A stretch of DNA of 64,000 nt, taken from the NCBI RefSeq assembly GCF_024298765.1, contig NZ_CP101211.1; one strand, written 5' to 3'. Each line of letters starts with the position of its first letter. Positions within the stretch are counted from its first letter, which is position 1. The position numbers and the translations under genes are program-made. This DNA is from Escherichia coli. GTDB taxonomy: Bacteria; Pseudomonadota; Gammaproteobacteria; Enterobacterales; Enterobacteriaceae. The notes beneath the pieces are model-generated. The model had not been told where the DNA came from. It saw only the letters and a list, made by a program, of their open reading frames with translations, and searched no databases. Below are positions 6,838-22,835 of this stretch, piece by piece.

Positions 6838-7231
6838 TTCGATATGGGCATTTACTTATGCTTAAAGCTATAGTATAAAAACAATGAGCTTAAATATCAG
6901 CTCCCAAATTTGAGTAACTTTGCTTAAAGTTACTTTCGCGTTAAGCGTTGATTTAGCCGTGAAAAGCGGCCAGCTTAAACAAGCTGTAAGACACCACCGG
7001 CAAAATGTCACCTTTGTCGCTGGTGCACTTCCCATGCCTGAAAAAGGCAATCTGAATTTACCAAACCGTAACTAATTTAGCTCCTCCTGGAGCTATTTTT
7101 GTTGCGTACTTCTAATGCCAGATAGTATAAATCAGGCGGTTCATAGCTTACGGGAGATGAATGACAGGCTTTGCCTTCGTGTTGAAACAAAAAATTGTTT
7201 CTTCCTTCTTACTATATATAGGTGACCCCAA

Positions 7232-8104
7232 ATGTCTAAAAATAAAGCTCGCAGTAAAGCCCTTCATCAAACCTTTAGTGAAATTATTCCAGAGATGGAT
7301 AAGGCGCTAAACAAACAGCTCTTAGAAGTTCTGATGAAATATACAGAACGTGATAATGAACTGATTGTTATTTTGAATGAGGACGGCCCAAATATCATTG
7401 AACTTAAGTCTCTTAAGCCTGTGTCTTTGTTGGCCGAAAAGCTTTCTGCTTATTCAAGCTATTATCATGTGGATGTTGTGGAGCTCGTGGTCAAGAAAAT
7501 TGATTTCGAAGGAGCTTATAAGCTTCTTAAAGCTTCCCCAGATGTACCACTTTTTAAAAGCTTAACTGAACTGGATAAATATCTTGTTGAGGAGTTTGAA
7601 AAATTCGGATTAAATTCATTTCTTGACGTGGATAATCTGGATTACTCACTTGAAAAAGCCAGTGAACTCAAAAATGAGCAGTTAATAAATTGGGTTTCGG
7701 ACATCATTTGCAAACGTGAAAAATTAACTTTACGTAAGCGTTTTGATGTCGCAGTAAAGGCCCACTACGAAAATGTAGAAAAAATGTATGATACCATTCG
7801 TCCGTTAATGAAAAAACTGGGTTTCCCAGAAGATCTCATGACGCACACCTTTAGTGAGTTAAGCGTTTTTGAAACTAAAGGATGGGACCATGCAATAAAA
7901 TCGAAAATTGAGACTCTCGCTAAGCGTGAAACTCAATATTTAGATGATGCGGCTAAAGCAGAGAATCGACGTCTTGTAACAGAGAAGTTGGAGAACTCTT
8001 TAGCGATTGCACCAACTAAACCAACAAGAAATTGGTTACATATTGCCGGAATTGCCTGTTTGGTAGTCTGCACGTTCATGTATGTAACTAATAAATTTAT
8101 TTAA
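7232..8104 (+). CDS. Hypothetical protein with C-terminal transmembrane anchor
   Basis: 290-aa ORF, charged helical body, hydrophobic C-terminus (WLHIAGIACLVVCTFMYV). Confidence 0.4.
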   Translation: MSKNKARSKALHQTFSEIIPEMDKALNKQLLEVLMKYTERDNELIVILNEDGPNIIELKSLKPVSLLAEKLSAYSSYYHVDVVELVVKKIDFEGAYKLLKASPDVPLFKSLTELDKYLVEEFEKFGLNSFLDVDNLDYSLEKASELKNEQLINWVSDIICKREKLTLRKRFDVAVKAHYENVEKMYDTIRPLMKKLGFPEDLMTHTFSELSVFETKGWDHAIKSKIETLAKRETQYLDDAAKAENRRLVTEKLENSLAIAPTKPTRNWLHIAGIACLVVCTFMYVTNKFI

Positions 8105-8161
8105 TCCTGTTAAGGGGGAACCCTAACGGGGCTTCTCTTTGAACAAATCGAGGAGCGGAAA

Positions 8162-8539
8162 ATGTCATATCTTGAATATATCAATGAAGTAAAAGTGTCC
8201 GGGATAGTTATCAGTGCTGTGGAGAAAAAAATGACTGACCAGAGTATAGGTTTGTTAATAAAGCTCAAAAATAGGATGAAGACAGAAGTTGATGGTGAAA
8301 TCACTGAGAGAGAATTTTCAGTTCAAATCAAGGTGTCGCCTGAAATGTATTCAACCTGTTTCACTGGTATAAATCAGGGTGATGAGTTGATGGTCTCCGG
8401 TTATATTGTTGTCGATACTATTATGATTGAAGGGAGAGAACATCCTCTTGACTACATGAGAGTGGTAGCAACAAGTAAGTTGGCTCACATACCTAAACCT
8501 CTAAAAGGTTTTGGACAAAGTAGCTTTAATCAGATCTGA
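8162..8539 (+). CDS. Hypothetical small protein, possibly OB-fold (SSB/PriB-like pattern)
   Basis: 125-aa ORF with RBS gaggag; alternating beta-like segments (VKVSGIV, FSVQIKV, MVSGYIVV); perfect hairpin terminator immediately downstream. Confidence 0.35.
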   Translation: MSYLEYINEVKVSGIVISAVEKKMTDQSIGLLIKLKNRMKTEVDGEITEREFSVQIKVSPEMYSTCFTGINQGDELMVSGYIVVDTIMIEGREHPLDYMRVVATSKLAHIPKPLKGFGQSSFNQI

Positions 8540-8599
8540 CATTAAACCCACCCTAAAGGGGAGAAATCCCTTCATGGGATTTCTCCTTTTGGAGTCCCC

Positions 8600-9577
8600 A
8601 TGAAACAAAAATTTAGGGCTACTGCAATAAGTAGTAATCAACTTAGTTTTTTTTCTATACTCGATATAGATGAAGATGAAATAACGCAAATAGTTGATTC
8701 ACCCAAAGAGCATTTAAATGATGCTTACACGTCCGGATTAAACTTTAAATCAGAAGAAAGTAACATTTCTGAGATAAATTATGATTCTGAAAGGCGTGAA
8801 AATCACCTTTATGAAAAATCCAAATTACTTAAAAATCAGATTTTGCATACAATTAATTTTGCAACAGAAACAGATTATCTATATACGGTTGAAGAATATA
8901 ACCCAGATTTGGGTGGTCTGGTAATAGAATGGACCCCTGAGGATGTGTATGTTGTTTTTCTATCCGCTATGGAAGAGTCTTTGGAAATCATTAAAGAACT
9001 AGTGTTGAGGAGAAAGTTATTCTTCAAAGATGACAATGGTAATATCACAGTGAATCCACTTTTAGAAGCTGAAACACGGTGGTATATGTCAAAATCATTT
9101 GAATACACTTGTTTATCTCATGGACTTGATGCATGTGAATTTAGAGCGGAATTAAAATCATGGCTCTATTATCATTCGCATCGTTCGATTAGTGAAAACA
9201 CGAAATTAGCTGAATGCAGGAATGATGATGAAATCATTTTGCATGATTGCAATGACGATATGGGCTGGGACATCTTCTTTGATCAGGATTATTTAATGTC
9301 AGAAAAAAAACTGGCTGTTAAATGGACTGACAGGGAAATTATGGATGTTTACATAAAAGCTTTTAAATCCTCATTAGAGTTGTTTGACGAGCTTGTTTCA
9401 TGTGATCTGTTAACTAAACGAAACGCTTTTGGCAAGTTAGAAATCAATCCAATATTCGAAAATCATTTTGAATGGATCATGTCTGAAGCTTTTGAAATAG
9501 TGGGAAATCATCTTGGTTATAATGTGCCTCAAATCAGGAAACTGATGGCAACTATTTGCCAAATGAATCTCAAATAA
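8600..9577 (+). CDS. Hypothetical protein
   Basis: 325-aa ORF in the same-strand gene block; no recognisable motif. Confidence 0.35.
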   Translation: MKQKFRATAISSNQLSFFSILDIDEDEITQIVDSPKEHLNDAYTSGLNFKSEESNISEINYDSERRENHLYEKSKLLKNQILHTINFATETDYLYTVEEYNPDLGGLVIEWTPEDVYVVFLSAMEESLEIIKELVLRRKLFFKDDNGNITVNPLLEAETRWYMSKSFEYTCLSHGLDACEFRAELKSWLYYHSHRSISENTKLAECRNDDEIILHDCNDDMGWDIFFDQDYLMSEKKLAVKWTDREIMDVYIKAFKSSLELFDELVSCDLLTKRNAFGKLEINPIFENHFEWIMSEAFEIVGNHLGYNVPQIRKLMATICQMNLK

Positions 9578-9634
9578 AATGCCACTGGCAAACATCTGCC
9601 AGAGGGCGGTGTTTGCATTTTACCGGAGTTAAAA

Positions 9635-10693
9635 ATGTCTAATGCCGCTATGAAGTTAAATGAAACATCTTCTGATGCTTATGAAAAATTAGAAGCTCTT
9701 CTTTCCCCGGATGTTATAAAGTTAAAACATTATGTGGATAAAGGTGAGTATCTTTTAGTTCTAGCAAAGGACCTTTTTGGTATTCCAGAAATGGATCCAA
9801 AGATGGCTGTGCCTGTTTTCAAAACTAAAACCTCGTATCGAGCTCCGCTGAACAAAGACTACATACCAAATCCCCGAATACTTGAACAAGTGGTTAAACT
9901 GCTTATCAGTCCGGATATAGATTTAAGTGTGTGTCTTAAAGGTGAGTCCGGTTCTGGCAAGACTGAAATGGTAATGTACATTAGCCACATGATGAATTGG
10001 CCGCTGACAATTAAGCAGATCAACAGCAATATTCGAGTTGATGAGCTTGAAGGTGAGCGCAGTCTTAATGGTGGTAATACAGGTTTTGTACACAGCGATT
10101 TGGTAACGGGATTTCGTAATGGTCACCTCATTCTTCTGGATGAAGTGGACAAAATCGATCCTGATACGGCAGCAAAACTTCACATGCCCATTGAACGTAA
10201 GCCCTGGTCACTCAGTGCTAATGGTGGTGAGGTTATAACTGCTAATGGCTACACGCGATTTATTGGTACTGCAAACACAAACATGAGTGGAGGCGCTCGC
10301 CGGTTCGTTTCTTCTCAACGTCAAGATGCAGCTTTTATAAAGCGGTTCTTGATAGTTGAAATGGAGAAGCCCGACAAAGTTGCTTTAACCAATGTGCTTA
10401 CTAAACGATATAGCTCTTTGCCTTTTCAGGTCATTGAGAAGTTCGTAAGAGTAGCGATTGCAGTAAATGACTCTGGTACAGAAGACAGTGTGATGGATAT
10501 TCGTCAATTAGTAGCTTGGGTTGGCACGTCGATGACGTTAAAAACCTTTAGTCTTCTTGACACTTTCAAAATAGCTTTTGCTTCTGCTTTACCTTTACAT
10601 GTGGTCGATCTTGTTCTTCAAGCTATAGATCTTTCTCTTGGCGAAGACAAGGATAAATCGCTGGAGTATTTCACAGCAAAAAAGTCGAGTTAG
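9635..10693 (+). CDS. AAA+ ATPase, MoxR/CobS-like
   Basis: 352 aa; Walker A GESGSGKT, Walker B hhhhLLDEVD, size and layout of MoxR-class single-AAA proteins. Confidence 0.6.
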   Translation: MSNAAMKLNETSSDAYEKLEALLSPDVIKLKHYVDKGEYLLVLAKDLFGIPEMDPKMAVPVFKTKTSYRAPLNKDYIPNPRILEQVVKLLISPDIDLSVCLKGESGSGKTEMVMYISHMMNWPLTIKQINSNIRVDELEGERSLNGGNTGFVHSDLVTGFRNGHLILLDEVDKIDPDTAAKLHMPIERKPWSLSANGGEVITANGYTRFIGTANTNMSGGARRFVSSQRQDAAFIKRFLIVEMEKPDKVALTNVLTKRYSSLPFQVIEKFVRVAIAVNDSGTEDSVMDIRQLVAWVGTSMTLKTFSLLDTFKIAFASALPLHVVDLVLQAIDLSLGEDKDKSLEYFTAKKSS

Positions 10694-11049
10694 ATGGGAT
10701 TTGTTATGAAACCTCTGATATTTGTATCTCAGAGTTATCCCATCTTGAATTTAGTGCGTTTTTAAGTACGGATGGTGCTGCTACCATTGCTATAGCAAAA
10801 AACGGAACTAATTTTACTGGACTTATGCAACTGAATAACGACTATTCTTTATTGTTTTATCATGATGGTAAAATAAATATGGAAGGTCTGATTAAACAAA
10901 TGGAATTAAAAGGTTATATGTATCAGGGAGCAATGGGCAATGATGATGTTGTTGCTGAGTTTCCCGGTATTCTTTTAATTTCACCAGAGTAGCTTTAATA
11001 TCAACCCTATCGGGAAATCTTTCCCGTTGGGGAGGGTTTCCCCTTTTTT

Positions 11050-12189
11050 TTGGAGAAACCCATGACTTTAAATACTTCAATGCTTAACAAAGTATCTGCA
11101 AAACAAATCTCTGAGAATTTTGCAAAATCATATCCAGATTTACTGGAAGGTGCAGTTATAACAAAAATTGAAATAAGTGGCTGTCAAGGATCGCGTCGAA
11201 CCGATAAAATCGATTTGTCTTATGATGGAGATGATATTACGGATCAAAAAAGCGTATCTAAAAGCGAAGTACGCTGGATTGACATAAAAGCCCTTAGCTT
11301 CAAAAGTACGATTACCAGCAGAATATCAACTCTTTGCTCACGCTTGTGCATCCGCTATAGCAATATGTGGATTTTACCAGTATCCAGTATGGAAGAGTTT
11401 CTGGAAGGGGCCCAAGAGATTGAACGAGAGTTTCAGGCAGGTATTCAAAACGTTGTAGACAATTATGAGATGCATATTGAGGCTGAAAAAAATAGAAGCC
11501 CAAGAATGTCTTCTTTGATTGATCAGTTGAAATTAACTAAAGATGATTTCATAAAATCCTTTAGATTTAATATTGCTCACTTTATTCCTTTTACGCCTAT
11601 TAGCGTTGAAGGTGATGAAACCCAGGACTACTATCAGGAACAATTGATAACAGATCTGGCAGAAGAAGCAATGAAGGTTTATGAAAAAATTAGCAAAAAT
11701 AACAATTTGCGCTCAAGTACTATTGACCGACTGAAGCAAATGCAAAATAAGATCATTAGCTTCATGTTTATACATAAAGAGGCGGCAGTACTTGCAGAAG
11801 CTATAAAACACATAATGAATAATTTACCTAAAGGTGCCATTTCTGAACCTCGCGACGTTGCGGTGTTACAGCAGTGGTTTTATTTCATGAGTGATGCTTC
11901 AATGTTAAAGCGTATTATTTCAGGAGAGCAAAAGGTTACTGACTGGTTGGAATCTATTACCAGATCATTTAATCAAAGCTCACAAACAGAACCGAACGCG
12001 CTACAGAACACAGGTATTGAAGCTATTTTAGATTCAACAAATGTGTTCCAGGTTGAACCTGTCGTAGAGAACGATATAAATAACAGCACGTTTTCAAACA
12101 CTGATCCTGTAGCTGAACCTGAGAAATCAGTTTCGCAACAGGAAGACAATGTTGAAAATGGTTTTGATATCGAGCTCAAAGGCTGGTAA
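11050..12189 (+). CDS. Hypothetical protein
   Basis: 379-aa ORF between the AAA+ and vWA genes; hairpin/T-run upstream and downstream. Confidence 0.35.
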   Translation: MEKPMTLNTSMLNKVSAKQISENFAKSYPDLLEGAVITKIEISGCQGSRRTDKIDLSYDGDDITDQKSVSKSEVRWIDIKALSFKSTITSRISTLCSRLCIRYSNMWILPVSSMEEFLEGAQEIEREFQAGIQNVVDNYEMHIEAEKNRSPRMSSLIDQLKLTKDDFIKSFRFNIAHFIPFTPISVEGDETQDYYQEQLITDLAEEAMKVYEKISKNNNLRSSTIDRLKQMQNKIISFMFIHKEAAVLAEAIKHIMNNLPKGAISEPRDVAVLQQWFYFMSDASMLKRIISGEQKVTDWLESITRSFNQSSQTEPNALQNTGIEAILDSTNVFQVEPVVENDINNSTFSNTDPVAEPEKSVSQQEDNVENGFDIELKGW

Positions 12190-12266
12190 CTGTTTGCTTT
12201 ATTAAAAACCCCAGATGGGTACTTCACCATCTGGGTGAGTACCCCTTTTTTATAAAGAGGTATTCT

Positions 12267-14279
12267 ATGAAATTAGATCTTAAATCATCACCGCGCCATA
12301 TTAAGCGTTTACAGAATATAGCAAAAGTCATTAGCGGCTTAGGCGATGTAAGAGTTGTAATAGACGACAATACCAAAGGACCGTATTTTGATCCTGTAAA
12401 TAAAGTTTGTGTTTTACCAAACGGCGATTATAGCGATGATGACTTTGTCAGTCTGATTGAAGGTTTTACCTGTCATGAAGCTGGTCATGGTCGCTATACC
12501 GACAGCGAGGTTTACAGTGACGCCTTTAATAGTGTTCTCAAGTCATCTGAAGGGTTTACACGCTTCGATGACGGAATGAATGCAGAGTTTGAGAGCCTCG
12601 CTGAGAAACGTAAAGCTTATAGCAGGGCAAAACGTCTTACCGGGCTTATAAATCTGTTCGATGATGTACAGATGGAAGAGAAGGTTGGTAACGATTATCC
12701 GGATGCAAAGCGGCGGCTTGCAGCCACTTACGCACTGATGGTTAAAGCCGGAAGGATGACTCCTGATATATCTTCTCGTCCGGAAAATCCTGTCCTATTT
12801 ATTGAGTGGTATCTGCTTAACTCATTGCGAGTAAAAGTCCTTCAGCAGGCAGGTCACAAAGAAACACTCGATCCGTTTTTTGACTATGCCCAAAAGATAC
12901 TTTCTCCAGTAATTTCTGATGTTGAGGAAATTTTTCATGATGCTCTTGGTTGTGAAAATACTCAGGGCTGTGAATCCCTTGCTCGTAAGACCCTGGCTCT
13001 TTTAGAGAGACTGCGGGATGAGGCAAGGGAACAACAGCAGCAGACAGAGCAGGAGGAGCAGGAGGCATATGATGAATCCGAGACCGAGACCGAGACCGAT
13101 ACCGAATCAGAAGATAAATCGCTTGAGTCGACTGATAGTCGTGAGGATGATTCTGAGGACGATAGTGAAGGTCAGGCAGATACTTCCGATAACTCTGATC
13201 TTGCTCAAGAGGGATGTTCTGAGCCTTCAGAACTTGCTGAAGATAACGAGGGAAATAATGAACCCACCGGTGGCAATCCCACAGGTGATAACATTATTGA
13301 AGACGATACTGATGCGATTAACCCTTCCGAGAGTGAATCAGATGAAGCCAGTTCGACTAACGTTGAAGATGAAAGTAACTTTTCATCGGCTCAATGGGAG
13401 ATACTGGCAGATTTGTTGGATGCCTTTCTTGGCAGTGATGAGGATAGCGAAGATTATCACGATGCTTTGGCTAAAGAGATTGAAGGTATTGCATCAAAAG
13501 TATCCGATGACGTGAAAGCCGAATTCGGTGCTTCTGAATGGGATATCCCTGATCTCCTTATCGATTTGAATGTTTACAATGAGGCTTTGTCTCTGAGTCA
13601 TTCAATCGGTAGCGACTTGTCTGTTTTACAGCAGGTTAAAATGCGTGGCCGAAACAAAACTCATGAGCGTGGAATTACCTTCGATGGAAATCGATTAATT
13701 CTGTCACCAATGGGAGTTCGTGATGTCTTCAGAGCTCAAAGCGAATCTAAAAATAGAGGGCATGTTGGCCTCGTATTAGTTCGTGATATTTCAGCGTCAA
13801 TGGCTAATGATGAAAGATATATTCATGCCATTAAGTCAGATCTTGCTTTATCGATGGCCGCTGAAAGTTTGTCAAAAATGCATGTCTCCAATATAGTCTT
13901 TCCCTTCAAGGAAAGTGAATTTGAGATTATCAAAACGTTTGATCAAAGCGTTGAGGAATCTCTATCGAAATTCACTCTTGGATGTAAGGGTTATTATACC
14001 CCTACGGGATCGGCTTTAATGGCAGCTGTTGATCTGTTACTTGACAGCCAATTCGATAGGAAAATAATTTTTCTTATAACTGATGGTTATCCGAATAAAT
14101 CGGAATTTACTATCGGCGAAGTTATGGAAAAGGCTAAATGTAATGGAATAGAAATCGTTGGTGTTGGTATTAAGACTGATGAAATAATTGGTTTTGAAAC
14201 GGACACTTTCGTAACAGTTGATGATACTTCTTTATTGTCTATTGAAGTCAGTAAGCTAGTTCATCAAATACTTTCTTAA
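12267..14279 (+). CDS. vWA-domain protein with N-terminal HExxH motif and acidic linker (CobT-like architecture)
   Basis: 670 aa; HEAGH motif near residue 70, long D/E/S/T-rich low-complexity linker, C-terminal vWA with MIDAS-like DISAS and downstream TDG. Confidence 0.6.
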   Translation: MKLDLKSSPRHIKRLQNIAKVISGLGDVRVVIDDNTKGPYFDPVNKVCVLPNGDYSDDDFVSLIEGFTCHEAGHGRYTDSEVYSDAFNSVLKSSEGFTRFDDGMNAEFESLAEKRKAYSRAKRLTGLINLFDDVQMEEKVGNDYPDAKRRLAATYALMVKAGRMTPDISSRPENPVLFIEWYLLNSLRVKVLQQAGHKETLDPFFDYAQKILSPVISDVEEIFHDALGCENTQGCESLARKTLALLERLRDEAREQQQQTEQEEQEAYDESETETETDTESEDKSLESTDSREDDSEDDSEGQADTSDNSDLAQEGCSEPSELAEDNEGNNEPTGGNPTGDNIIEDDTDAINPSESESDEASSTNVEDESNFSSAQWEILADLLDAFLGSDEDSEDYHDALAKEIEGIASKVSDDVKAEFGASEWDIPDLLIDLNVYNEALSLSHSIGSDLSVLQQVKMRGRNKTHERGITFDGNRLILSPMGVRDVFRAQSESKNRGHVGLVLVRDISASMANDERYIHAIKSDLALSMAAESLSKMHVSNIVFPFKESEFEIIKTFDQSVEESLSKFTLGCKGYYTPTGSALMAAVDLLLDSQFDRKIIFLITDGYPNKSEFTIGEVMEKAKCNGIEIVGVGIKTDEIIGFETDTFVTVDDTSLLSIEVSKLVHQILS

Positions 14280-14350
14280 TAAACTCTACCCAATCGGGGC
14301 AAAAGGCCCCGGTGGGTCTTTTTGCTCCATGAAGGAATAAGGAGCAAAAT

Positions 14351-14572
14351 ATGACTCAGATAAAAACTTACCGTGTAGAACATGAAAAAGTCGGTGCGAT
14401 GCATAAAGTCCGTATTTTCGGACGTGTTGGTGAAGTTATAAGCAATGATAGCCCTCAGGAAAGAATCTTCCGCGAAGTCACTATAGCGGAGGGTAATAGC
14501 CAGCAGGCTGCGTTACTTGTAGATAACTACATACAGCGTCTTGAGAATAATGGCTTCACGACTGAAGCATAA
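14351..14572 (+). CDS. Small hypothetical protein
   Basis: 73-aa ORF with RBS aaggag upstream; palindrome terminator GAGGGCCCCCGGGCCCTC downstream. Confidence 0.3.
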   Translation: MTQIKTYRVEHEKVGAMHKVRIFGRVGEVISNDSPQERIFREVTIAEGNSQQAALLVDNYIQRLENNGFTTEA

Positions 14573-14613
14573 ATGTTGAGGGCCCCCGGGCCCTCTTTCT
14601 TAAATTCTGCGTT

Positions 14614-15918
14614 GTGGGTTTCTCCCTGTCTTCTGCACCGCAGAAGGCATTGAGAAACTCACAATGCCAGATAAGAGAGATCATCATGACTTATGCATCC
14701 CCGGCTCTTCGTCGTAATCCACAGGAAGTATCTGAACACTTTATTAAACTCGTTCATGCTCGAATTGCTGAAGTGTCTGGCTGGAAGTATATATTCGAAA
14801 GAATACCTGCTTTCAAAGACGCTTGTGCAAAAGCCCCGAGCCAGGTTCCTTGCCCGTTTACTGGCGCAGGGAAATCGAAGTTTCGTTTCCGACAAAAAGA
14901 CCTTTATACCGGATGTGCGATCCATAATGACTTTCCGGTAAATGAGTTTTGCGACGGAATTGATGTTCTGGCGAAATATTATGAATTAAGTAAAACGCAG
15001 ACTTGCAAAAAGATTCTCTCAGATTTTTTCGGGATGGATCTGCATGCTCCGTTAACTGACGCCGACATTGAAAATGAACGACGCTATAAATCAGCAGTTC
15101 GTGCCACAGAAACTCTTGACCGAGAGGAAGTGGCAAAGCGAATGCGAAAACTTGATGTGATGTATCACTATACCGGTGAAATCAAGCCTAATACTCCTGT
15201 TGCTTTGTACCTCCGTAATCGTGGGATCTCCCGCTTACTGAGTCACTTACCAAAGGATTTAGGCTTTAATAACCGGATCTACTATTGGGATAAAGATAAG
15301 CAGAAATCGATTATCTATCCGGGAATGATTGCGATCTATCGTGACACCCGAGGTCGGCCTCTGACTATTCATAGAACATACGTAGACAAAAATGGTGATA
15401 AGGCACCTGTAGAAAATCCAAAGCTGATGATGAAGCCTCCTGCCGATATGACAGGTGGCTCAATTCAGTTGTTTGACCCTCACTATGATTCAGGTAGTTC
15501 GACCTGGACACTGGGAGTGGCTGAAGGGATCGAGAACGCGCTTTCTGTTGTAGAAGCGACTTCAACACCATGCTGGGCAGCCAGCTCCGCATGGTGCCTT
15601 GAAAACGTTACTGTTCCTGATTTTTTACTGCCTCCGCCGGATGTAAAATCTATAAACTTTTATATCTGGGCGGATAAGGATATTGCTAACTCACAAGGCA
15701 CTCGTGCCGGTATTGAAGCTGCTCAGCGACTTCAAAGCCGCATGGTTGAGTTTTTGGCTAAACGATATCCCGCATCAAAGCTGACAATTGAAGTCTTCGA
15801 ACCAGCACAAGATATTCCTGATGGGAAAAAGGGTATCGACTGGAACGATGTTCTCCAGTTAACAGGGCAGGATGGATTCCCGATTCACTGGGCTCCTGAA
15901 TGTCTTAATCAGCTGTAA
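14614..15918 (+). CDS. Primase-like protein (P4-type primase zinc-binding motif plus Toprim-like segment)
   Basis: CPFTGAGKSKFRF resembles the CPxCGGxDRFRF Zn-binding motif of primase-helicases; later GVAEGIENALS resembles a Toprim acidic motif; true start may be internal ATG at 14686. Confidence 0.45.
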   Translation: MGFSLSSAPQKALRNSQCQIREIIMTYASPALRRNPQEVSEHFIKLVHARIAEVSGWKYIFERIPAFKDACAKAPSQVPCPFTGAGKSKFRFRQKDLYTGCAIHNDFPVNEFCDGIDVLAKYYELSKTQTCKKILSDFFGMDLHAPLTDADIENERRYKSAVRATETLDREEVAKRMRKLDVMYHYTGEIKPNTPVALYLRNRGISRLLSHLPKDLGFNNRIYYWDKDKQKSIIYPGMIAIYRDTRGRPLTIHRTYVDKNGDKAPVENPKLMMKPPADMTGGSIQLFDPHYDSGSSTWTLGVAEGIENALSVVEATSTPCWAASSAWCLENVTVPDFLLPPPDVKSINFYIWADKDIANSQGTRAGIEAAQRLQSRMVEFLAKRYPASKLTIEVFEPAQDIPDGKKGIDWNDVLQLTGQDGFPIHWAPECLNQL

Positions 15919-15950
15919 CAACGATAACTCCCCCGCTTTTTGCGGGGGGG

Positions 15951-15996
15951 GTTATCTTATCAATATTATATTTTAAAATTGTATTGATAAGATAAC
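15951..15996. promoter_or_regulatory. 46-bp perfect palindrome (15-bp arms GTTATCTTATCAATA / TATTGATAAGATAAC, 16-bp AT spacer)
   Basis: Read directly; lies in a 270-bp intergenic region after a GC hairpin terminator (CCCCCGC-ttttt-GCGGGGG). Confidence 0.4.
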
Positions 15997-16188
15997 CGCT
16001 TTCCTTCGTGATAATTACCTGCCTTTAAGGTCTTTTCACGGCTGAGATGCTTGCTCAGTTAAATAAATGTGCGGTACTACTGGCTATGGTCGGTTGTATG
16101 ACATGGTTATTCCATAAACTATTAAAACCCATAACGGGAGTATTACCGTTATGGTGATGCTCGTCGTTTTACATCGGAGAGCATTTTA

Positions 16189-16710
16189 ATGAATTTTCAA
16201 ATTAACGAAGTTTTTAATAAATTTGCTGCTGTTATAAAATCGCGCATCGTCAATGAACCATCGTCATGCTATTTGCTGCATGATAATGAGATAGATATAA
16301 CGATTTTGAAACATAGCATATTAGAAAATGACAGAAACCTGTTGTACGTAGTTCGTCCTTCAGGAACGTGTTTGTTGCGTTGTGACAAATATTTCTATCC
16401 GAAATATTATCTTCGTTGCCGTGGAGATTATAAGTCATTCATATATGTCCATCTTGATCTACATAGTGGTGAAGCTAAAGAAATCACATGGGAGCAAGCA
16501 GACGATATGCTGTCTAGTCCAGGAAAACCCCCATTAAAAGGGAATCTTGGACGATTTGAGTATATAAAAGTTGTGGTTGAGGACCTTCGTATTCGAGGTT
16601 ACGCTGATTATCTTCCTGCGTATAATCTTGATGACCTTCGCCGTTTTGCCTTACAGGACGACCGCCCATCCCTTGTCAGATACATTGACAATGTCATGGC
16701 AACGGTCTGA
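16189..16710 (+). CDS. Hypothetical protein
   Basis: 173-aa ORF with RBS ggagag. Confidence 0.35.
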   Translation: MNFQINEVFNKFAAVIKSRIVNEPSSCYLLHDNEIDITILKHSILENDRNLLYVVRPSGTCLLRCDKYFYPKYYLRCRGDYKSFIYVHLDLHSGEAKEITWEQADDMLSSPGKPPLKGNLGRFEYIKVVVEDLRIRGYADYLPAYNLDDLRRFALQDDRPSLVRYIDNVMATV

Positions 16711-16788
16711 TTGATTGCTAATTGATTTACATATTTTCCCTGATGGCCAACCTGCATCAGGGAGGCCTCAATAACGAATGGAGGCTGT

Positions 16789-17667
16789 ATGAAGTTAGCT
16801 ACGGACCTGGTAAAAGCTATTTTGATTAGAAATGGCGTTGAACCAGTAAATATAAGCGAATCATCTAAGTTATCTTTGAAACAACCACTGACAGAACTTA
16901 AATTCAGTTTATATTTGCGAACTGAGCATTTATCTCACTTCCTACCCGGTTATGTTTATTCTATAAAAGAATGTCCACTGTCATATGACATCGGGATCGA
17001 AATTCAGAAAATCTTCGAAAGTTTACATTTGTTAAACGAAGAATTTGAATCCCTCGGTTTTGTTTCTGTATGGATAGAAATGCATCAAAGCATTTTTGAA
17101 CAAAGTCGGTTTAAGAAAAGTAACTTTACTTTTCGGGAGGAAGAGGTCGAGCTTGCTAAAGGGCTTGTTTGTTCTCACAATTCACAAATAAGTAATGCGG
17201 CTTATTTCTGGCTTCAGCACTTTGAGGAGTTTATGATTTATGTTCGTAATAAGCTTATCGACCTCTTTCGAGAGGCCTATGACCTGATCCTTGGAATGCA
17301 GCAAGTATTTTTCATTCGGGAAAAGGAAGAGCTGTTGAAAACTATAAGTTATGGCGATGAGCTGTATGAGGTGAAATTCATGGCGGCTGAGCTTTACTCT
17401 ATCGAACAGAACTTAAAGTGTTCTGAATCGATAAGTACAAAATCTCAAGCTTCGGCATATATTAACCGCATCCGTGAGTTTGTGCGTTCGGGGTGGAGGC
17501 AGGGCTATATAGTCTGCCATCATAAGCGAAGTAATCAAATTTCATCATTGTCATTACCGATGTACTTGAAAGATACGTCAGGCCGAAGTGCTCGAAAGCG
17601 AGTAAAACGTCTTATATCTTCTACAGTTTGTGGTAGAAATAAAGATTTAGGTCTTACAGATTTTTAA
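16789..17667 (+). CDS. Hypothetical protein, member of tandem paralog array
   Basis: 292-aa ORF; shared N-terminal pattern (h-x-x-h-L-x-x-x-G) with neighbours; hairpin CCCTGATG..CATCAGGG upstream. Confidence 0.35.
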   Translation: MKLATDLVKAILIRNGVEPVNISESSKLSLKQPLTELKFSLYLRTEHLSHFLPGYVYSIKECPLSYDIGIEIQKIFESLHLLNEEFESLGFVSVWIEMHQSIFEQSRFKKSNFTFREEEVELAKGLVCSHNSQISNAAYFWLQHFEEFMIYVRNKLIDLFREAYDLILGMQQVFFIREKEELLKTISYGDELYEVKFMAAELYSIEQNLKCSESISTKSQASAYINRIREFVRSGWRQGYIVCHHKRSNQISSLSLPMYLKDTSGRSARKRVKRLISSTVCGRNKDLGLTDF

Positions 17668-17737
17668 TTAAATTATACCCATGTGGGGATCACACCCCAT
17701 ATGGGAGTGATCCCTTTTTTTATTGAGAGAGGATCAC

Positions 17738-18493
17738 ATGAAAATTATCGAAAAAATCATTAATGCCTTTTTGGTTGTTCAACATAAAAAAATACAGGTT
17801 AAAAACATTACATTTTTAGACAATGGGCAGGGCATGTTCTCTGGTATGTCTTTTGATGCTGATGTTTCACTGGAGTTTATGTATGAATCAGCAAAAGCAT
17901 ATAGTTCTTGTTTCTGTGATATTCCCTTTCCAGGTTTTGAAGATGCAAATCTGGAGGAAATTACGAAATTTCAATTAGATGCTCTGAAGCAAAGAAAGAA
18001 TCATTCTTTCTTTGTTAACCATTTGAGGTTTCCTATAGTTTTAAGGGAAGGGTGCAAAATCGAAAGAGGAGAAGTCTATTCAATTTCGAATTGCACTTAT
18101 AATAAAGAAAGATTGCAGTATCTTTTTTCTCAGGATATTTACGGTAAGTTGTATAATTCCTTAGAGAAAGAATTAAGCTCGTTTTTCTCATTTATCAATG
18201 TTGAGGTGCACGAGTTGTTAAAAGATGCTGTATGCTTTGCATTAAAAATCCTGAATAAGATATCTTTGGATACACCTGAAAGACTTATTAAAGCTTTTAA
18301 TTATCGTGACTGGTATTGTAGTTACGATGTTGAGCTTTTTAGGAAAGGCTTACCTGGTCATATTCTGGAAGAGCTCATTGCTCCAGATATCTTACTTTCA
18401 GACCTTAACGGTTGTAGAAAAATACTTAGAAATGCAAAACGATTTCTAAATGGACATACACAAACCAATTGTGTTTATATTAAATATGAATGA
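17738..18493 (+). CDS. Hypothetical protein, possible paralog-array member
   Basis: ATG preceded by RBS gagagagga (track gives TTG start at 17723); hairpin plus T-run immediately upstream. Confidence 0.35.
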   Translation: MKIIEKIINAFLVVQHKKIQVKNITFLDNGQGMFSGMSFDADVSLEFMYESAKAYSSCFCDIPFPGFEDANLEEITKFQLDALKQRKNHSFFVNHLRFPIVLREGCKIERGEVYSISNCTYNKERLQYLFSQDIYGKLYNSLEKELSSFFSFINVEVHELLKDAVCFALKILNKISLDTPERLIKAFNYRDWYCSYDVELFRKGLPGHILEELIAPDILLSDLNGCRKILRNAKRFLNGHTQTNCVYIKYE

Positions 18494-18741
18494 TGGTTGG
18501 GGCCTGTTGATACCTCACACTCAGCTAAGTTGATGTCTGACAAAGAAATTAATAACCGAAGTGACTTGAAGAATTTTTCAAAGGTCTTTTTCAAAGAGTG
18601 TTTAAGTTCTGGTAAGTCGGAATATGAAAACCATCTTAGTGAAAAAGAACATGCGCTTCGCTATAATTATTAATTAAAATTATTTTCTCCCATAGGGATT
18701 TCTCCCTATGGGAGAAATCCCTCTATTAAGAGGGTATTGAA

Positions 18742-19662
18742 ATGAATGCTATACAAAAGTTAGTTGAATCTATTCTTGTTAAAATGGGTTTTGTTGGCGC
18801 TGTAGTGGAAAATATATATTTGGATTCAAAACCATTTCGGCATATTCGATTTGTGGCTGATATTCCAGTAATATCTTTTCTACCTCATTTGGTGAAATAT
18901 CTTAAGGGTGCAGACCATCTTTACAGTGGTAACGATGATTTGCATCCTCTTTTCATTTATTTTTCCGAAGCGGCTACATTAAAAGCAGGTCCTGTAAATC
19001 TCGCGAACTTTCGTTTTGAAGTTTCTATAGCTTCAACTCATTTACGACTGGTCTCAGAGCAGCCTGATTTGCTTTTCAAAGGATTTAACCGGGATAATCT
19101 AGAATACGTTTATTACCGCTCAGATTTGGCCTCTAAGGATCTTATACTAGGCCTTGTTGAACACGGTTCTCCTTTCATAAAACATCTACATGGACTTATA
19201 CAAAAGCGAATTTTAAACGAGTTCTCTCTGATTTTTTCTGTTCTTGAAAAGATTTTAGAAAGCGCGAAGCCACAAATTCTTGCTTGCTTCCATAGTGTTG
19301 ATTATGAAATGAACGTAAAAATAATAGCCGAAGCTATACCTGAAACTGTATCTAATCAGATAGTCACATCTGATTATATAGTTAATTCTATATCAGATGC
19401 GGACAAGTTTATAAATCATGTTCGTCGCTATTTAGCAGGCAGGGTAATGAAGAGGCGGATATACGCTGAATTAGATGTTTGTGAAGAAACATCAAGTATT
19501 TCACTAGTGAACTTAGGATGCTTTACGTCTCCTCTGCTCGTTACGGAATATCAAATGTTTAAGCCACACTCTTCAGGGTTATATCGAAAAGCTATAAACA
19601 ACTCCTTAAAACAGTTCAAACCAGAAATGCATGTACCTTCTGAAGAACTCTTTTATAATTAA
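18742..19662 (+). CDS. Hypothetical protein, paralog-array member
   Basis: 306-aa ORF; nested perfect palindromes directly upstream. Confidence 0.35.
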   Translation: MNAIQKLVESILVKMGFVGAVVENIYLDSKPFRHIRFVADIPVISFLPHLVKYLKGADHLYSGNDDLHPLFIYFSEAATLKAGPVNLANFRFEVSIASTHLRLVSEQPDLLFKGFNRDNLEYVYYRSDLASKDLILGLVEHGSPFIKHLHGLIQKRILNEFSLIFSVLEKILESAKPQILACFHSVDYEMNVKIIAEAIPETVSNQIVTSDYIVNSISDADKFINHVRRYLAGRVMKRRIYAELDVCEETSSISLVNLGCFTSPLLVTEYQMFKPHSSGLYRKAINNSLKQFKPEMHVPSEELFYN

Positions 19663-19728
19663 TCTAACCCATCCGGGAACCTGCTTCCCGGTGGGAAGCA
19701 CTTCCTTTTTAGTCATGAGGTAGTGTAA

Positions 19729-20667
19729 ATGTTTAAAGAATCTGACCACGTGGAATTTGTTAGTGCCTTTCTTTATCAAAATTTAGGCCTTAATGTTTCC
19801 GCTGACGATATAACCGTTCAATTATCTGATACTTCGTTCGACAAAGTAACCTTTGATTACGATGTAGATATCGATAATTTAAATTGTATGTTGGATCTCT
19901 ACATATCTGAGCTAATAAAGCACAACGCATCTTACTCCGATTCTATTCTTTTGAAACAAAAAATAATTTATTTTCTTGGAGTATTTAAGAATTTCGGATT
20001 TTTTACGTTTGATATTCGCGGATATAGTAATACTTTAAGCCCAGTTAAAGTTATTGATATTGTTTCAATGATTATTAATGACTGTGAAGAGTTATCTAAA
20101 GCTAATTCTTCTACTGATGCTATAAGAAATCTTTATCTCGATAAAATGAAGGTGGATGGGAAAGTGTTAGTTGCGAAATTTGCACTTAAACAGTTTTTTC
20201 ATTCCGACTTTGGTGACTTTATCTCATTTGTCGAGAAAAGAATTACAGATTGTCTTAATGAAACTTTAAGGATTATCAAAGCTGTTGAACATGGCTTTGT
20301 ACGTGTAGGGCAGCATAAGATTAATCGCCGTATTAATGATGACTTAAAGTTATGCATTGATTTCAATACTGATGATTATCCGGCAAATATGCCAGATATA
20401 TATATTAAGTTTAACGATACATTTGATGGGAACGGGGCGTTATATTGTGACAATGATGCCCTCATATCCCTCTATACCGATGTTGCTTCAATTATCAATG
20501 TGCCGGTGATGATGGAAGTAAGATTGATCAATAAAAGAGGGCGTGTTGTCTGTGATTCTTCGCATTCAACTTACGTATCTCTCGAAAGTAATGACCGATA
20601 CAGAGTAACTGATCGCACATTACTAATAACTGAAGCTTTTGACGATTTTCGTAACGCGTCTCAATGA
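19729..20667 (+). CDS. Hypothetical protein, paralog-array member (intact sister of the IS1-split gene)
   Basis: 312 aa; N- and C-terminal blocks align with the 20833 gene (VLVAKFALKQFFHSDF vs VMIARFALQQFWDTHF); near-identical RBS gaggtagtgtaaatg. Confidence 0.4.
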   Translation: MFKESDHVEFVSAFLYQNLGLNVSADDITVQLSDTSFDKVTFDYDVDIDNLNCMLDLYISELIKHNASYSDSILLKQKIIYFLGVFKNFGFFTFDIRGYSNTLSPVKVIDIVSMIINDCEELSKANSSTDAIRNLYLDKMKVDGKVLVAKFALKQFFHSDFGDFISFVEKRITDCLNETLRIIKAVEHGFVRVGQHKINRRINDDLKLCIDFNTDDYPANMPDIYIKFNDTFDGNGALYCDNDALISLYTDVASIINVPVMMEVRLINKRGRVVCDSSHSTYVSLESNDRYRVTDRTLLITEAFDDFRNASQ

Positions 20668-21443
20668 TCCTTTTGCTTCAGTCCAAAAAAGTAACTTTGG
20701 TTGGCTGAAGACACTTGTCTATGACAATGTAAAATCTGTCGCTGGCATCTTCTTTTAGCTTAACCAAATTTTTATCTAACCCAGTGGGGAAGTCGCTTCC
20801 CTTCTGGGGCACTTCCTCTCAAATTCGAGGTAGTGTATATGACACATTCATCTGATGATAAAAACTATGTCCGAGCAGTTCTGAGTTATCTTGGCATAGA
20901 TTTTGATGAGGCGGATATAGTATTAAGTGTTTGCCATTGTCAAAGTGACGAGCTTTCTTTTACCTGTAATATCAAAGCTATTGAACTCAAGAATGCTGTT
21001 GATTTATATGTCGATAGTATCTCTGAGAATGAAATAGAAGCTTTAAACAGAGAATCTTTAAAATCGCGACTCTGTTACTTTCTTGAGGTGTTTGACGCAG
21101 TCTCTGGTCAGTACCTTGAAATTTCAGGAAAACACTTTGCAACTAGTCGTTTTGAATATGATGATGTTTGTAGTGAAGTTCTTAGCATGTCTAATGATGT
21201 TTCTCAGTCGAAAGGTTATGACCGGGATGAATATAACAGACTGATGCAGGTTGATGGTCAGGTTATGATTGCCCGTTTTGCTTTGCAACAGTTCTGGGAT
21301 ACTCATTTTATTGGACTAATAACATTTGTATCTGAGTCTATAACATCGAGCCTCTATAAAGCTTATGAAACTTTTAGTGATATTAGTTTGGCTTGCTATA
21401 AACTGAGTGAATATTCTTATTCACGCTCGGTAATGACTCCAAC

Positions 21444-21947
21444 TTATTGATAGTGTTTTATGTTCAGATAATGCCCGATGACTTTGTCATGCAGCTCCAC
21501 CGATTTTGAGAACGACAGCGACTTCCGTCCCAGCCGTGCCAGGTGCTGCCTCAGATTCAGGTTATGCCGCTCAATTCGCTGCGTATATCGCTTGCTGATT
21601 ACGTGCAGCTTTCCCTTCAGGCGGGATTCATACAGCGGCCAGCCATCCGTCATCCATATCACCACGTCAAAGGGTGACAGCAGGCTCATAAGACGCCCCA
21701 GCGTCGCCATAGTGCGTTCACCGAATACGTGCGCAACAACCGTCTTCCGGAGCCTGTCATACGCGTAAAACAGCCAGCGCTGGCGCGATTTAGCCCCGAC
21801 GTATCCCCACTGTTCGTCCATTTCCGCGCAGACGATGACGTCACTGCCCGGCTGTATGCGCGAGGTTACCGACTGCGGCCTGAGTTTTTTAAATGGCGGA
21901 AAATCGTGTTGAGGCCAACGCCCATAATGCGGGCGGTTGCCCGGCAT
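21444..21947 (-). CDS. insB: IS1 InsB (transposase made by frameshift fusion with InsA)
   Basis: 167-aa ORF matching IS1 InsB as recalled. Confidence 0.8.
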
Positions 21948-22141
21948 CCAACGCCATTCATGGCCATATCAATGATTTTCTGGTGCGTACCGGGTTGAGA
22001 AGCGGTGTAAGTGAACTGCAGTTGCCATGTTTTACGGCAGTGAGAGCAGAGATAGCGCTGATGTCCGGCGGTGCTTTTGCCGTTACGCACCACCCCGTCA
22101 GTAGCTGAACAGGAGGGACAGCTGATAGAAACAGAAGCCAC
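21866..22141 (-). CDS. insA: IS1 InsA
   Basis: 91-aa [46 protein letters not shown] matches IS1 InsA as recalled. Confidence 0.8.
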
Positions 22142-22611
22142 TGGAGCACCTCAAAAACACCATCATACACTAAATCAGTAAGTTGGCAGCATCACCTTCA
22201 CGCTCTATCAACAGTGAATTGACCCTTAATATTTCACTTAAAGAAAATGACTTCTGTGAGGACCTATCTGATTGCTATATGGAAGATGAGGCTTTACCTT
22301 CTGGTAGGGTAATTTCTCGACGCAACAATGACTCCATAATAAGTATTTATGAGAGCTATGCTGCGGCTTCTTATATTCCGATGATTGCATCTTTGGAAGT
22401 CGTTGATGAATACGGCGAAGTGGTTACTGACCTCTGCCATACCGTTTATGTTTCAGAGTTAACCGGTGGGCGGATTAAAATCCACGACCGTAATGACTTA
22501 GTATCTGAAGTTTTCGATAACCTAAGAAATTTAAATCTTGCAGTTGGAGATTCAGTTTCACAAGCTGCTTGATTCTTTCCCTGATTTTGATTTTTTCTCA
22601 CATACTCTTAT

Positions 22612-22637
22612 GGCACGGTTTCCGTGCCTTTTTTTTG
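22612..22637 (+). terminator. Intrinsic terminator after the paralog array
   Basis: GGCACGG-ttt-CCGTGCC hairpin followed by TTTTTTTT. Confidence 0.6.
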
Positions 22638-22835
22638 CCTCGCTTACAAGCGTCTACTCCTCTTCTACCTATCCCACCTTACATCACCACTTAAAATCTA
22701 TCTTTCTAATTCCATTATCCTTTTCGTAGCCTCTAATGCTCTGGTATGAACATACTCTTTAAACTCAAAAAAGTGCTATTAACGAAAAAAAATCCCTAAA
22801 GAGATTTGTATACTGTTCTCAACCAAGGAGAGCTC

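Follow-up and report, generated by a model that had tools for sequence, protein, structure and literature searches.

Tandem hairpins upstream of the genes of a conserved IncHI2 plasmid array as candidate cis-acting translational attenuators

What is the role of the GC-rich hairpins that lie between almost all genes of a conserved array of IncHI2 plasmids? The question is raised by a stretch of 64,000 nucleotides from Escherichia coli (contig NZ_CP101211.1; hereafter, the window), in which a first-pass annotation had described palindromes in nearly every intergenic gap from 8.1 to 20.8 kb. The present analysis indicates that the palindromes are part of a two-hairpin RNA module on the + strand, the second hairpin of which holds the Shine-Dalgarno sequence (SD) of the next gene. 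We consider it probable, though with reservations that are set out below, that the hairpins are cis-acting translational attenuator modules, operating cistron by cistron on the + strand mRNA at nearly every cistron downstream of trhI.

The part of the window from 8000 to 21400 showed 99–100% identity to about 1,100 records of large conjugative plasmids of enterobacteria that are typed as IncHI2 (MOBH relaxase, MPF_F). In an annotated IncHI2 copy (L001), trhU, trhN and trhI are followed by + strand genes for hypothetical proteins, an AAA ATPase, a DUF3150 protein, a VWA protein, a toprim protein and further hypothetical proteins, and profile searches of the array proteins (PHROG and NCBIfam matches) indicated that the ATPase is CobS-like, the VWA protein CobT-like and the toprim protein primase-like. 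By annotation and synteny, the array falls among the traN-proximal operons with a CobS/CbbQ-like AAA ATPase, a DUF3150 protein and a VWA protein, and its AAA protein matched that of IncC plasmids in tblastn with 27% identity (E-value 2e-19). The 13-kb array is operon-like, is related to a known anti-defence operon of other plasmids and is the IncHI counterpart of the IncC/SXT operon. The loci used for comparison were L001 (IncHI2), L002 (IncHI1), L003 (Klebsiella IncHI1B/FIB, pNDM-MAR-type), L006 (Photobacterium), L007 (IncC) and L008 (an SXT/R391-type integrative and conjugative element, ICE). A profile search of genome contigs with a DUF3150 alignment returned only two loci, and the wider relatives were obtained by tblastn against plasmids and with a Bet homologue.

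Architecture of the two-hairpin modules

Hairpins had been described in almost every gap of the array; 11 of the 14 + strand gaps at 8.1–20.8 kb were found to hold one module of about 55–65 nt, two further gaps (at 9578 and 14573) hold variants, and the gap at 10694–10824 holds no module. Each gap, taken between the stop codon of one gene and the start codon of the following one, was folded and compared with dinucleotide shuffles, and all 13 folded far below the shuffles, with z-scores of −4.0 to −9.2 in ten gaps and −1.8 to −2.4 in three, confirming that the hairpins are real. The palindromes quoted in the first-pass annotation were also found, to within 1–2 nt: GGAGAAATCCC-ttcat-GGGATTTCTCC at 8560–8586, CCAGATGG/CCATCTGG at 12211–12234, a nested pair at 18687–18721, and one given as CGGGAAA..TTCCCG, which is CCGGGAA/TTCCCGG at 19673–19691, 1–2 nt away from the place given, where CGGGAAA should read CGGGAAC. 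Each was rightly seen as a hairpin, but the palindrome is only half of the module, and the pairing of the SD with sequence 3' of the palindrome had been overlooked.

In minimum free energy (MFE) folds, two hairpins (HP1 and HP2) stand in tandem, 0–5 nt apart, in 11 of 13 gaps. HP1 is a GC-clamped hairpin with CCC-N3-5-GGG arms and an energy of −13 to −23 kcal/mol, and HP2 is formed by an anti-SD that pairs with the SD and spacer of the next gene, with an energy of −7.6 to −14 kcal/mol. The SD thus lies within the 3' arm of HP2 in these 11 gaps, and either the AUG or the SD is occluded in both variants, as in a stem-loop that occludes the ribosome-binding site (RBS). The module can be divided into five segments: seg1 pairs with seg3 in HP1, and seg4 (the anti-SD) pairs with seg5 (the SD region, sometimes with the AUG as well) in HP2. 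Seg2, which comprises the top of the HP1 5' arm and the loop, is an SD-like copy that is complementary to seg4, and these two segments can form an alternative hairpin (ALT) with seg3 self-folded at its apex, which is incompatible with both HP1 and HP2. The module accordingly contains six alternating C and G tracts (C-G-C-G-C-G, a to f), which pair as a:d, b:c and e:f in HP1 and HP2 or as b:e and c:d in ALT, and this alternative pairing explains the conserved C and G tracts.

The pairing of seg2 with seg4 is specific to each copy, with a mean duplex energy of −9.4 kcal/mol for cognate segments versus −6.3 kcal/mol for non-cognate ones, and permutation within lineages gave p < 5e-5 for IncHI2, 1e-4 for IncHI1, 0.009 for Klebsiella, 5e-5 for IncC and 0.009 for the SXT-type element. 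HP1 and ALT are about equally stable in nearly every copy, and in most copies their energies lie within about 2 kcal/mol of each other (−19.9/−19.7 in E10, −17.2/−17.2 in E12, −16.7/−17.1 in E5 and −20.9/−19.5 in E6, RNALfold values included). The form of an intrinsic terminator, in which a U-tract adjoins the 3' end of a GC-rich hairpin, is never provided by HP1 and is provided by ALT in about half of the copies: at least five U in 8 nt, or U4–U8, follow ALT in E2, E4, E5, E8, E10 and E12 and in several IncC/SXT copies. The other IncHI2 copies are without a U-run, and it is not kept between IncHI2 and IncHI1; the T-run said often to follow the palindromes is present in about half of the copies and not in most. 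The repeated 11-nt arm that had drawn attention does occur at 8560 and 18711 and is SD/anti-SD-like (GGAG.../...CTCC), but it is weak evidence taken alone, because about 19 chance repeats of 11-mers are expected in 12.7 kb by our rough estimate.

HP1 lies 52–63 nt from the start codon in ten canonical copies (the 42 nt obtained for E2 in automatic detection reflects an HP1 that was mis-defined there), whereas the distance from the upstream stop codon to HP1 varies from 1 to 210 nt. Because the distance is fixed downstream and variable upstream, the module belongs to the following gene and not to the preceding one. A covariance model (R1) was built from 28 IncHI-type copies (IncHI2, IncHI1 and Klebsiella IncHI1B/FIB) with a hand-given structure, and its matches are included below where they characterise a copy.

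E1, 8106–8164, + strand: HP1 8106–8130; HP2 8131–8156, with anti-SD GCUUCUC paired to SD GAGGAGC; start codon 8162; z −4.0; R1 match 8099–8165.
E2, 8548–8602, + strand: the perfect 11-bp hairpin at 8560–8586 is ALT, followed by UUUU; HP2 8573–8602 (+ strand) contains the SD GGAG as well as the AUG at 8600; z −2.4; R1 match 8545–8602.
E3 (variant), 9581–9646, + strand, at the gene for the CobS-like AAA ATPase: hairpin 9581–9607; a second stem, CAUUUU:AAAAUG, encloses the AUG at 9635 and not the SD; z −1.8; missed by the covariance model.
E4, 11005–11064, + strand, at the DUF3150 gene: HP1 11005–11032; ALT 11012–11042, then U8; HP2 11034–11061 (+ strand); start codon 11062; z −4.5; R1 E-value 1e-7.
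E5, 12210–12269, + strand, at the VWA gene: HP1 12210–12235; ALT 12217–12244, then U6; HP2 12237–12265; start codon 12267; z −4.6.
E6, 14288–14353, + strand: HP1 14288–14317; ALT 14296–14328; HP2 UUUUGCUCC:GGAGCAAAA, 9 bp; start codon 14351; z −5.7.
E7 (variant), 14578–14688, + strand, at the gene for the primase-like toprim protein: HP1 14578–14595; anti-SD CUUUCUUA and SD UAAGAGAG pair over a long (60-nt), conserved hairpin that is inserted between them at about 14606–14666, a layout also present in L002, L003 and L006; annotated start codon 14686; z −9.2.
E8, 16129–16191, + strand: HP1 16129–16154; ALT 16135–16166; HP2 16156–16185; start codon 16189; 210 nt from the upstream stop codon, beyond a gap with a terminator and promoter-like sequence; z −5.2.
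E9, 16737–16791, + strand: HP1 16737–16763; HP2 16764–16786 (GGCCUC:GAGGCU); start codon 16789; z −2.3; R1 E-value 0.02.
E10 (the clearest copy), 17678–17740, + strand: HP1 17678–17705, −21 kcal/mol; ALT 17685–17715, −18.6 to −19.7 kcal/mol, then U7; HP2 17707–17737 (GUGAUCC:GGAUCAC); start codon 17738; z −7.5; sequence CCCAUGUGGGG-aucaca-CCCCAUAUGGG a GUGAUCC-cuuuuuuuauugagaga-GGAUCAC AUG.
E11, 18684–18744, + strand: HP1 18684–18717 (15 bp; MFE fold and terminator scan) or 18686–18715 (automatic detection); ALT 18694–18722, 11 bp, GGGAUUUCUCC:GGAGAAAUCCC; HP2 18719–18734 (CCCUC:GAGGG); start codon 18742; z −6.0.
E12, 19668–19731, + strand: HP1 19668–19695; ALT 19675–19706, then U5; HP2 19698–19726; start codon 19729; z −4.2.
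E13, 20780–20841, + strand: HP1 20780–20808; ALT 20786–20818; HP2 20809–20836; start codon 20839; 112 nt from the upstream stop codon; z −5.1.

An H-type pseudoknot, in which the loop of HP1 would pair downstream while HP1 stays intact, was rejected on geometric reasoning: the linker of 0–2 nt between HP1 and seg4 cannot span a stem of 9–15 bp, and seg2 includes stem bases of HP1.

Conservation, covariation and strand of the modules

Both hairpins are kept in every orthologous gap of the IncHI1 orthologue L002, which has about 73% nucleotide identity. Between IncHI2 and IncHI1, substitutions affect 12.8% of paired positions versus 27.7% of unpaired positions, and 24 of the 43 pairs that changed are still paired, 9 of them by double compensatory change. 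The change in E10 is a three-way one, in which seg2 went from GGAUCAC to GGAUUAC, seg4 from GUGAUCC to GUAAUCC and seg5 from GGAUCAC to GGAUUAC. In an alignment of 36 copies, which was fitted to the covariance model and is accordingly biased towards structure, 70.9% of cells pair versus 58.6% in shuffles (reached in 0/500), and the covariation score was 0.343 versus 0.172 in shuffles (0/500) and 0.10–0.20 with slid partners. Applied to 28 copies aligned with MAFFT, RNAalifold returned only three pairs, the stems being out of register through indels.

The same two-hairpin layout, with unrelated sequence, was observed in the gaps of the syntenic operons of Klebsiella IncHI1B/FIB, Photobacterium, IncC and the SXT/R391-type ICE, and mean column identity was 47%, with only the C/G clamps conserved. 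R1 also matched IncC sites and, in the SXT-type L008, sites upstream of exo (E-value 5e-7) and bet (6935–7001, E-value 0.004). The first-pass annotation had proposed a comparison with related plasmids, in which an absence of conservation would have counted against its idea; the position and fold of the hairpins are instead kept from IncHI to IncC and SXT. Covariance modelling, which it had also proposed, was likewise informative, as R1 found only the known + strand sites of the array across the window, while a few − strand matches underlie the same sites and score much lower. A descriptor of the two hairpins, applied to all candidate start codons on both strands, gave 14 matches, 9 of which are at true gene starts in the array. 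A count of RNALfold hairpins is undiscriminating by itself, with hundreds at or below −11 kcal/mol in the window, and only the descriptor and the covariance model were specific.

Folding is more favourable on the + strand than on the − strand (−27.1 versus −23.6 kcal/mol; true of 20 of 25 copies, p = 2.4e-4), and G-U pairs account for 43 of the 486 stem pairs. For the 90-nt translation-initiation regions of four plasmids, the folding energy was −29.9 kcal/mol inside the arrays versus −15.5 kcal/mol in neighbouring genes (p = 5e-12), and the accessibility of the SD zone in these plasmids was 0.34 inside versus 0.45 outside (p = 0.004). A terminator scan flagged E4, E6, E7, E8 and E12 on the + strand and gave 28 sites versus 13.3 expected, and a promoter scan gave 35 sites versus 48.7 by chance. 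A boundary between transcription units, with a terminator and then a promoter, was not the pattern of the gaps, most of which are 57–78 nt long and occupied by the module; only 15919–16188 has both a terminator and promoter-like sequence. The earlier judgement that the hairpins are not simple terminators, in gaps too short for a promoter, is upheld. Rfam gave no match on the window and only chance-level matches at E-value ≤ 1 on 8000–21000.

Translational attenuation and the rival explanations

Attenuation had rightly been listed among the candidate functions. A 'strong translational attenuator upstream of bet' has been reported for SXT and also for IncA/C plasmids (Garriss, Poulin-Laprade & Burrus 2013, J Bacteriol 195:1991, as cited in PMC4542580). 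In IncC plasmids, vcrx089 (AAA, CbbQ_C), vcrx090, ssb, bet and exo constitute the 'hde' operon, by which the plasmid is protected, once in the recipient, against restriction and CRISPR-Cas, and a structure that sequesters the RBS of vcrx089, the homologue of the gene following E3, was predicted (Roy 2020, PMC7498323). The SXT/IncC operon is described as a single long, highly transcribed polycistronic mRNA (PMC7498323, PMC4542580). The IncHI2 modules resemble this attenuator in the syntenic operon adjoining traN (CobS/CbbQ-like AAA ATPase, DUF3150, VWA, ssb), in the position directly upstream of a cistron and in the two-hairpin fold with the SD in the second hairpin. They differ in number, since the sites described in these sources are single (bet, vcrx089), whereas the window has 13 modules, at nearly every cistron. 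In the literature that we searched, a set to which the primary paper on the SXT attenuator did not belong, the distribution over every cistron, the SD-like copy in HP1, ALT and anything of the kind on IncHI were not described, and the array is not mentioned in the transcriptome paper on R27. We regard the IncHI2 modules as further members of the SXT-type attenuator kind, here seen as a family into whose design an alternative fold is built.

In the ground state with HP1 and HP2, the RBS would be hidden, and the gene would be transcribed but poorly translated, by analogy with SXT bet, for which reduced protein output at undiminished mRNA is known through a review (PMC4542580); the array as a whole is probably transcribed, with the brake applied to the translation of each single gene. 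ALT would leave the SD free when formed on a finished transcript and, where a U-run follows, would resemble an intrinsic terminator when formed on a nascent one. The module is thus built as a two-state switch, although the actual use of ALT is an inference. For the change from HP1 to ALT, our leading guess, which is speculative, would be a co-transcriptional partition between the two hairpins, nearly isoenergetic as they are, or a factor binding over the CCC tract on the 5' side; in silico, neither temperature nor a ribosome terminating upstream acted as a trigger. Pfam searches of the two open reading frames (ORFs) of 125 and 290 amino acids (aa) at the head of the array yielded no candidate for an RNA-binding factor; the 125-aa ORF had no match, and the 290-aa ORF had only two non-significant ones (E-values of about 7–10). 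Any use of ALT is probably kinetic.

Comparable behaviour is familiar from single sites. In the maturation gene of phage MS2 (kinetic translation control) and in hok mRNA (metastable folding), the final fold hides the SD, and an alternative local hairpin can delay it, so that only young transcripts are translated. Isoenergetic HP1 and ALT with a deep ground state of HP1 and HP2 would permit a like behaviour, although this is only an analogy, MS2 and hok being single sites. The attenuators with a leader peptide (ermC, cat and CTnDOT tetQ; for CTnDOT, PMC5812530) also hide the SD in the ground state and free it by a shifted hairpin, but the IncHI2 modules have no leader peptide or antibiotic sensor, and their first segment is untranslated, its distance to the upstream stop codon varying between copies. 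A conserved leader ORF overlapping the first segment was not seen by eye in the IncHI2, IncHI1 and Klebsiella gaps, the 9-codon ORF of E10 being absent in IncHI1. The terminator/antiterminator attenuators of the trp and pyrBI type are similar in having mutually exclusive hairpins, one of them with a U-run; they differ from the IncHI2 modules, in which the U-run is not universal, a leader peptide or ligand domain is absent, and a third hairpin holds the downstream SD.

Several observations weigh against translational attenuation by a working switch. The difference in SD accessibility from control genes is modest, and HP2 has only −7.6 to −8.4 kcal/mol in E1, E6, E9, E11 and E12, where attenuation may be mild. 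The specificity of seg2 for seg4, and hence of ALT, was not significant in Photobacterium (permutation p = 0.11). That the SXT attenuator is this very fold is taken from a sentence in a review and from our own folds. In an equilibrium model, no more than 8 of 25 copies had an open SD (P > 0.5) once 7 nt of the HP1 5' arm were masked, and masking by a ribosome footprint at the upstream stop codon (stop + 10 nt) changed the mean SD accessibility from 0.20 to 0.21 and opened the SD in no copy. By this model, the switch may thus never work once transcription is complete. A broader proposal, namely that a self-contained two-state RNA switch, with HP1 and ALT tuned to equal stability, stands before every cistron of an establishment/anti-defence operon common to MOBH elements (IncHI, IncC and SXT/R391) and limits translation to nascent transcripts or to a post-entry trigger, is put forward only tentatively, and we would sooner expect it to fail than to hold.

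The same hairpins might instead be transcription attenuators, with ALT and its U-run as the intrinsic terminator and HP1 as the antiterminator, which, with a fraction of the transcripts ending at each gap, would yield a graded polar operon in which SD pairing is secondary. The U-runs after ALT, the terminator-scan flags and the near-isoenergetic energies, with which HP1 and ALT could both form on nascent RNA, would suit this explanation, but it must contend with a U-run that about half of the copies lack and that is not kept between IncHI2 and IncHI1 orthologues, with the universal SD pairing and with the single long mRNA reported for the SXT/IncC operon, and we judge it to be somewhat unlikely; partial termination may also accompany attenuation, the one switch then having two outputs. 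A relay of translational coupling, in which the ribosome that ends the upstream gene melts HP1 so that ALT forms and the downstream SD opens, each gene then depending for its translation on that of the gene before, has the appeal of an ermC-type topology (ground state 1:2 and 3:4, induced state 2:3) and of a stop codon 0–5 nt from HP1 in some copies (E1, E12, IncC ssb and exo). This distance is, however, 8–26 nt in most copies and more than 100 nt in E8 and E13, the IncC copies in 5' untranslated regions have no upstream cistron at all, the footprint at the stop codon leaves SD accessibility nearly unchanged, and a conserved leader ORF was not found in the gaps, all of which makes the relay unlikely. 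We think just as little, or slightly less, of cleavage by RNase E or RNase III in or beside hairpins that then protect the new ends. The AU-rich single-stranded linkers 5' of HP1, the stabilisation that a 5'-terminal hairpin would give to a processed downstream message and the abutting of HP1 and HP2 (0–5 nt), which could stack, are compatible with such processing, but it leaves the copy-specific complementarity of seg2 and seg4 and the SD in the second hairpin unexplained, and single stems of 9–15 bp are short for RNase III.

Elements acting at the DNA level, whether repeats like repetitive extragenic palindromes (REP) or miniature inverted-repeat transposable elements (MITE), operators bound by a protein that recognises palindromes, or promoters or priming signals acting in single-stranded form at conjugative entry, are very improbable. 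Such elements could well be palindromic, GC-rich and recurrent between the genes of a conjugative plasmid, and a primase-like gene is in the array; yet pairing is conserved with compensatory changes and primary sequence is not, the strong R1 matches all have one orientation, lie inside the array and keep a fixed distance to the start codon, and the + strand is more stable than the − strand through G-U pairs. The stems are also without −35/−10 hexamers, promoter-like sites are below chance, and Rfam gave no match. The REP-like and protein-binding-site readings of the first-pass annotation find no support in these results. RNA thermometers, finally, would be suggested by the SD sequestered in a hairpin and by the thermoregulated transfer of IncHI plasmids (PMC7366339), which show temperature-sensitive conjugation. 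In silico, the predicted SD accessibility stayed flat between 15 °C (0.165) and 50 °C (0.181). The HP2 stems are more stable than those of typical thermometers, and IncC and SXT, which have the same modules, are not known to be temperature-restricted as IncHI is; we hold this explanation to be the most improbable of those considered. Translational attenuation by the modules thus remains the explanation that we prefer.

Other features of the array and significance

Several further features were observed in and around the modules. In E12 and E13, seg4 and seg5 are nearly identical (GCACUUCC ... GAGGUAGUGU), whereas the downstream proteins (19729–20667 and 20839–21450) are paralogues with only 27% identity; the RNA element is held constant or homogenised while the proteins have diverged. 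The inserted hairpin of E7 (14606–14666) is long and near-perfect, its sequence is highly conserved in IncHI1 and Klebsiella, and a different long hairpin is found there in Photobacterium; a possible role of the E7 hairpin is that of a specific signal for the primase gene, in regulation or in priming. In − strand reading, HP1 of 12210–12235, 16129–16154 and 18684–18717 together with its A-rich 5' flank becomes a hairpin followed by a U-run (e.g. CCCAGATGG...CCATCTGGG GTTTTTAATA), which could stop antisense transcription. Two gaps of the IncC locus L007 (8749–8967 and 13604–13802) share a repeat of about 70 nt (CCAAAAACAAACAGCAAAUUAACGUUAAUUUACUAG...) followed by an identical HP1, and these repeats are probably duplicated activator-dependent promoter regions, each leading directly into a module.

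Upstream of E8, 15928–15950 is a strong terminator-like hairpin, CTCCCCCGC-TTTTT-GCGGGGGGG, and 15953–15994 is a perfect 14-bp inverted repeat, TATCTTATCAATA...TATTGATAAGATA, overlapping the promoter-like TTGATA-17-GATAAT; from its sequence, this repeat looks like an operator for an internal promoter. The Klebsiella counterpart of the gap at 15928–16010 contains only the module, and the stretch with the terminator and the repeat is absent. The gap at 10694–10824, the only one in the array without a module, precedes a 55-aa ORF (10825–10992), and it is uncertain whether this ORF is coding and where it starts, because its IncHI1 counterpart has 89 aa and a gap of 38 nt. The CobT-like VWA protein has a long acidic low-complexity stretch (window 13040–13400), which in the Klebsiella protein (L003, 12750–13080) has grown to dozens of tandem repeats of the SDDSDG type. 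The last gene of the array (318 aa) is intact in L001 at 21840–22796; the window departs from L001 at 21429, and an IS1B-like insertion sequence at about 21410–22197 breaks the gene.

In Enterobacteriaceae, IncHI2 plasmids are among the major carriers of multidrug resistance. If a conserved RNA module holds back the translation of every cistron of the array, mRNA levels would mislead about the expression of the array genes, and deletions that move or keep a module would have polar effects. Polar effects were suspected for a deletion of vcrx089-090 (Roy 2020, PMC7498323). The more than 60 natural copies of one switch design, diverse in sequence, should be useful for the study of RNA folding. 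Plasmid establishment could be controlled through whatever signal opens the modules, and, should the two-state switch prove true, entry of the plasmid would be followed by a burst of anti-restriction, recombination and primase functions and then by self-silencing.

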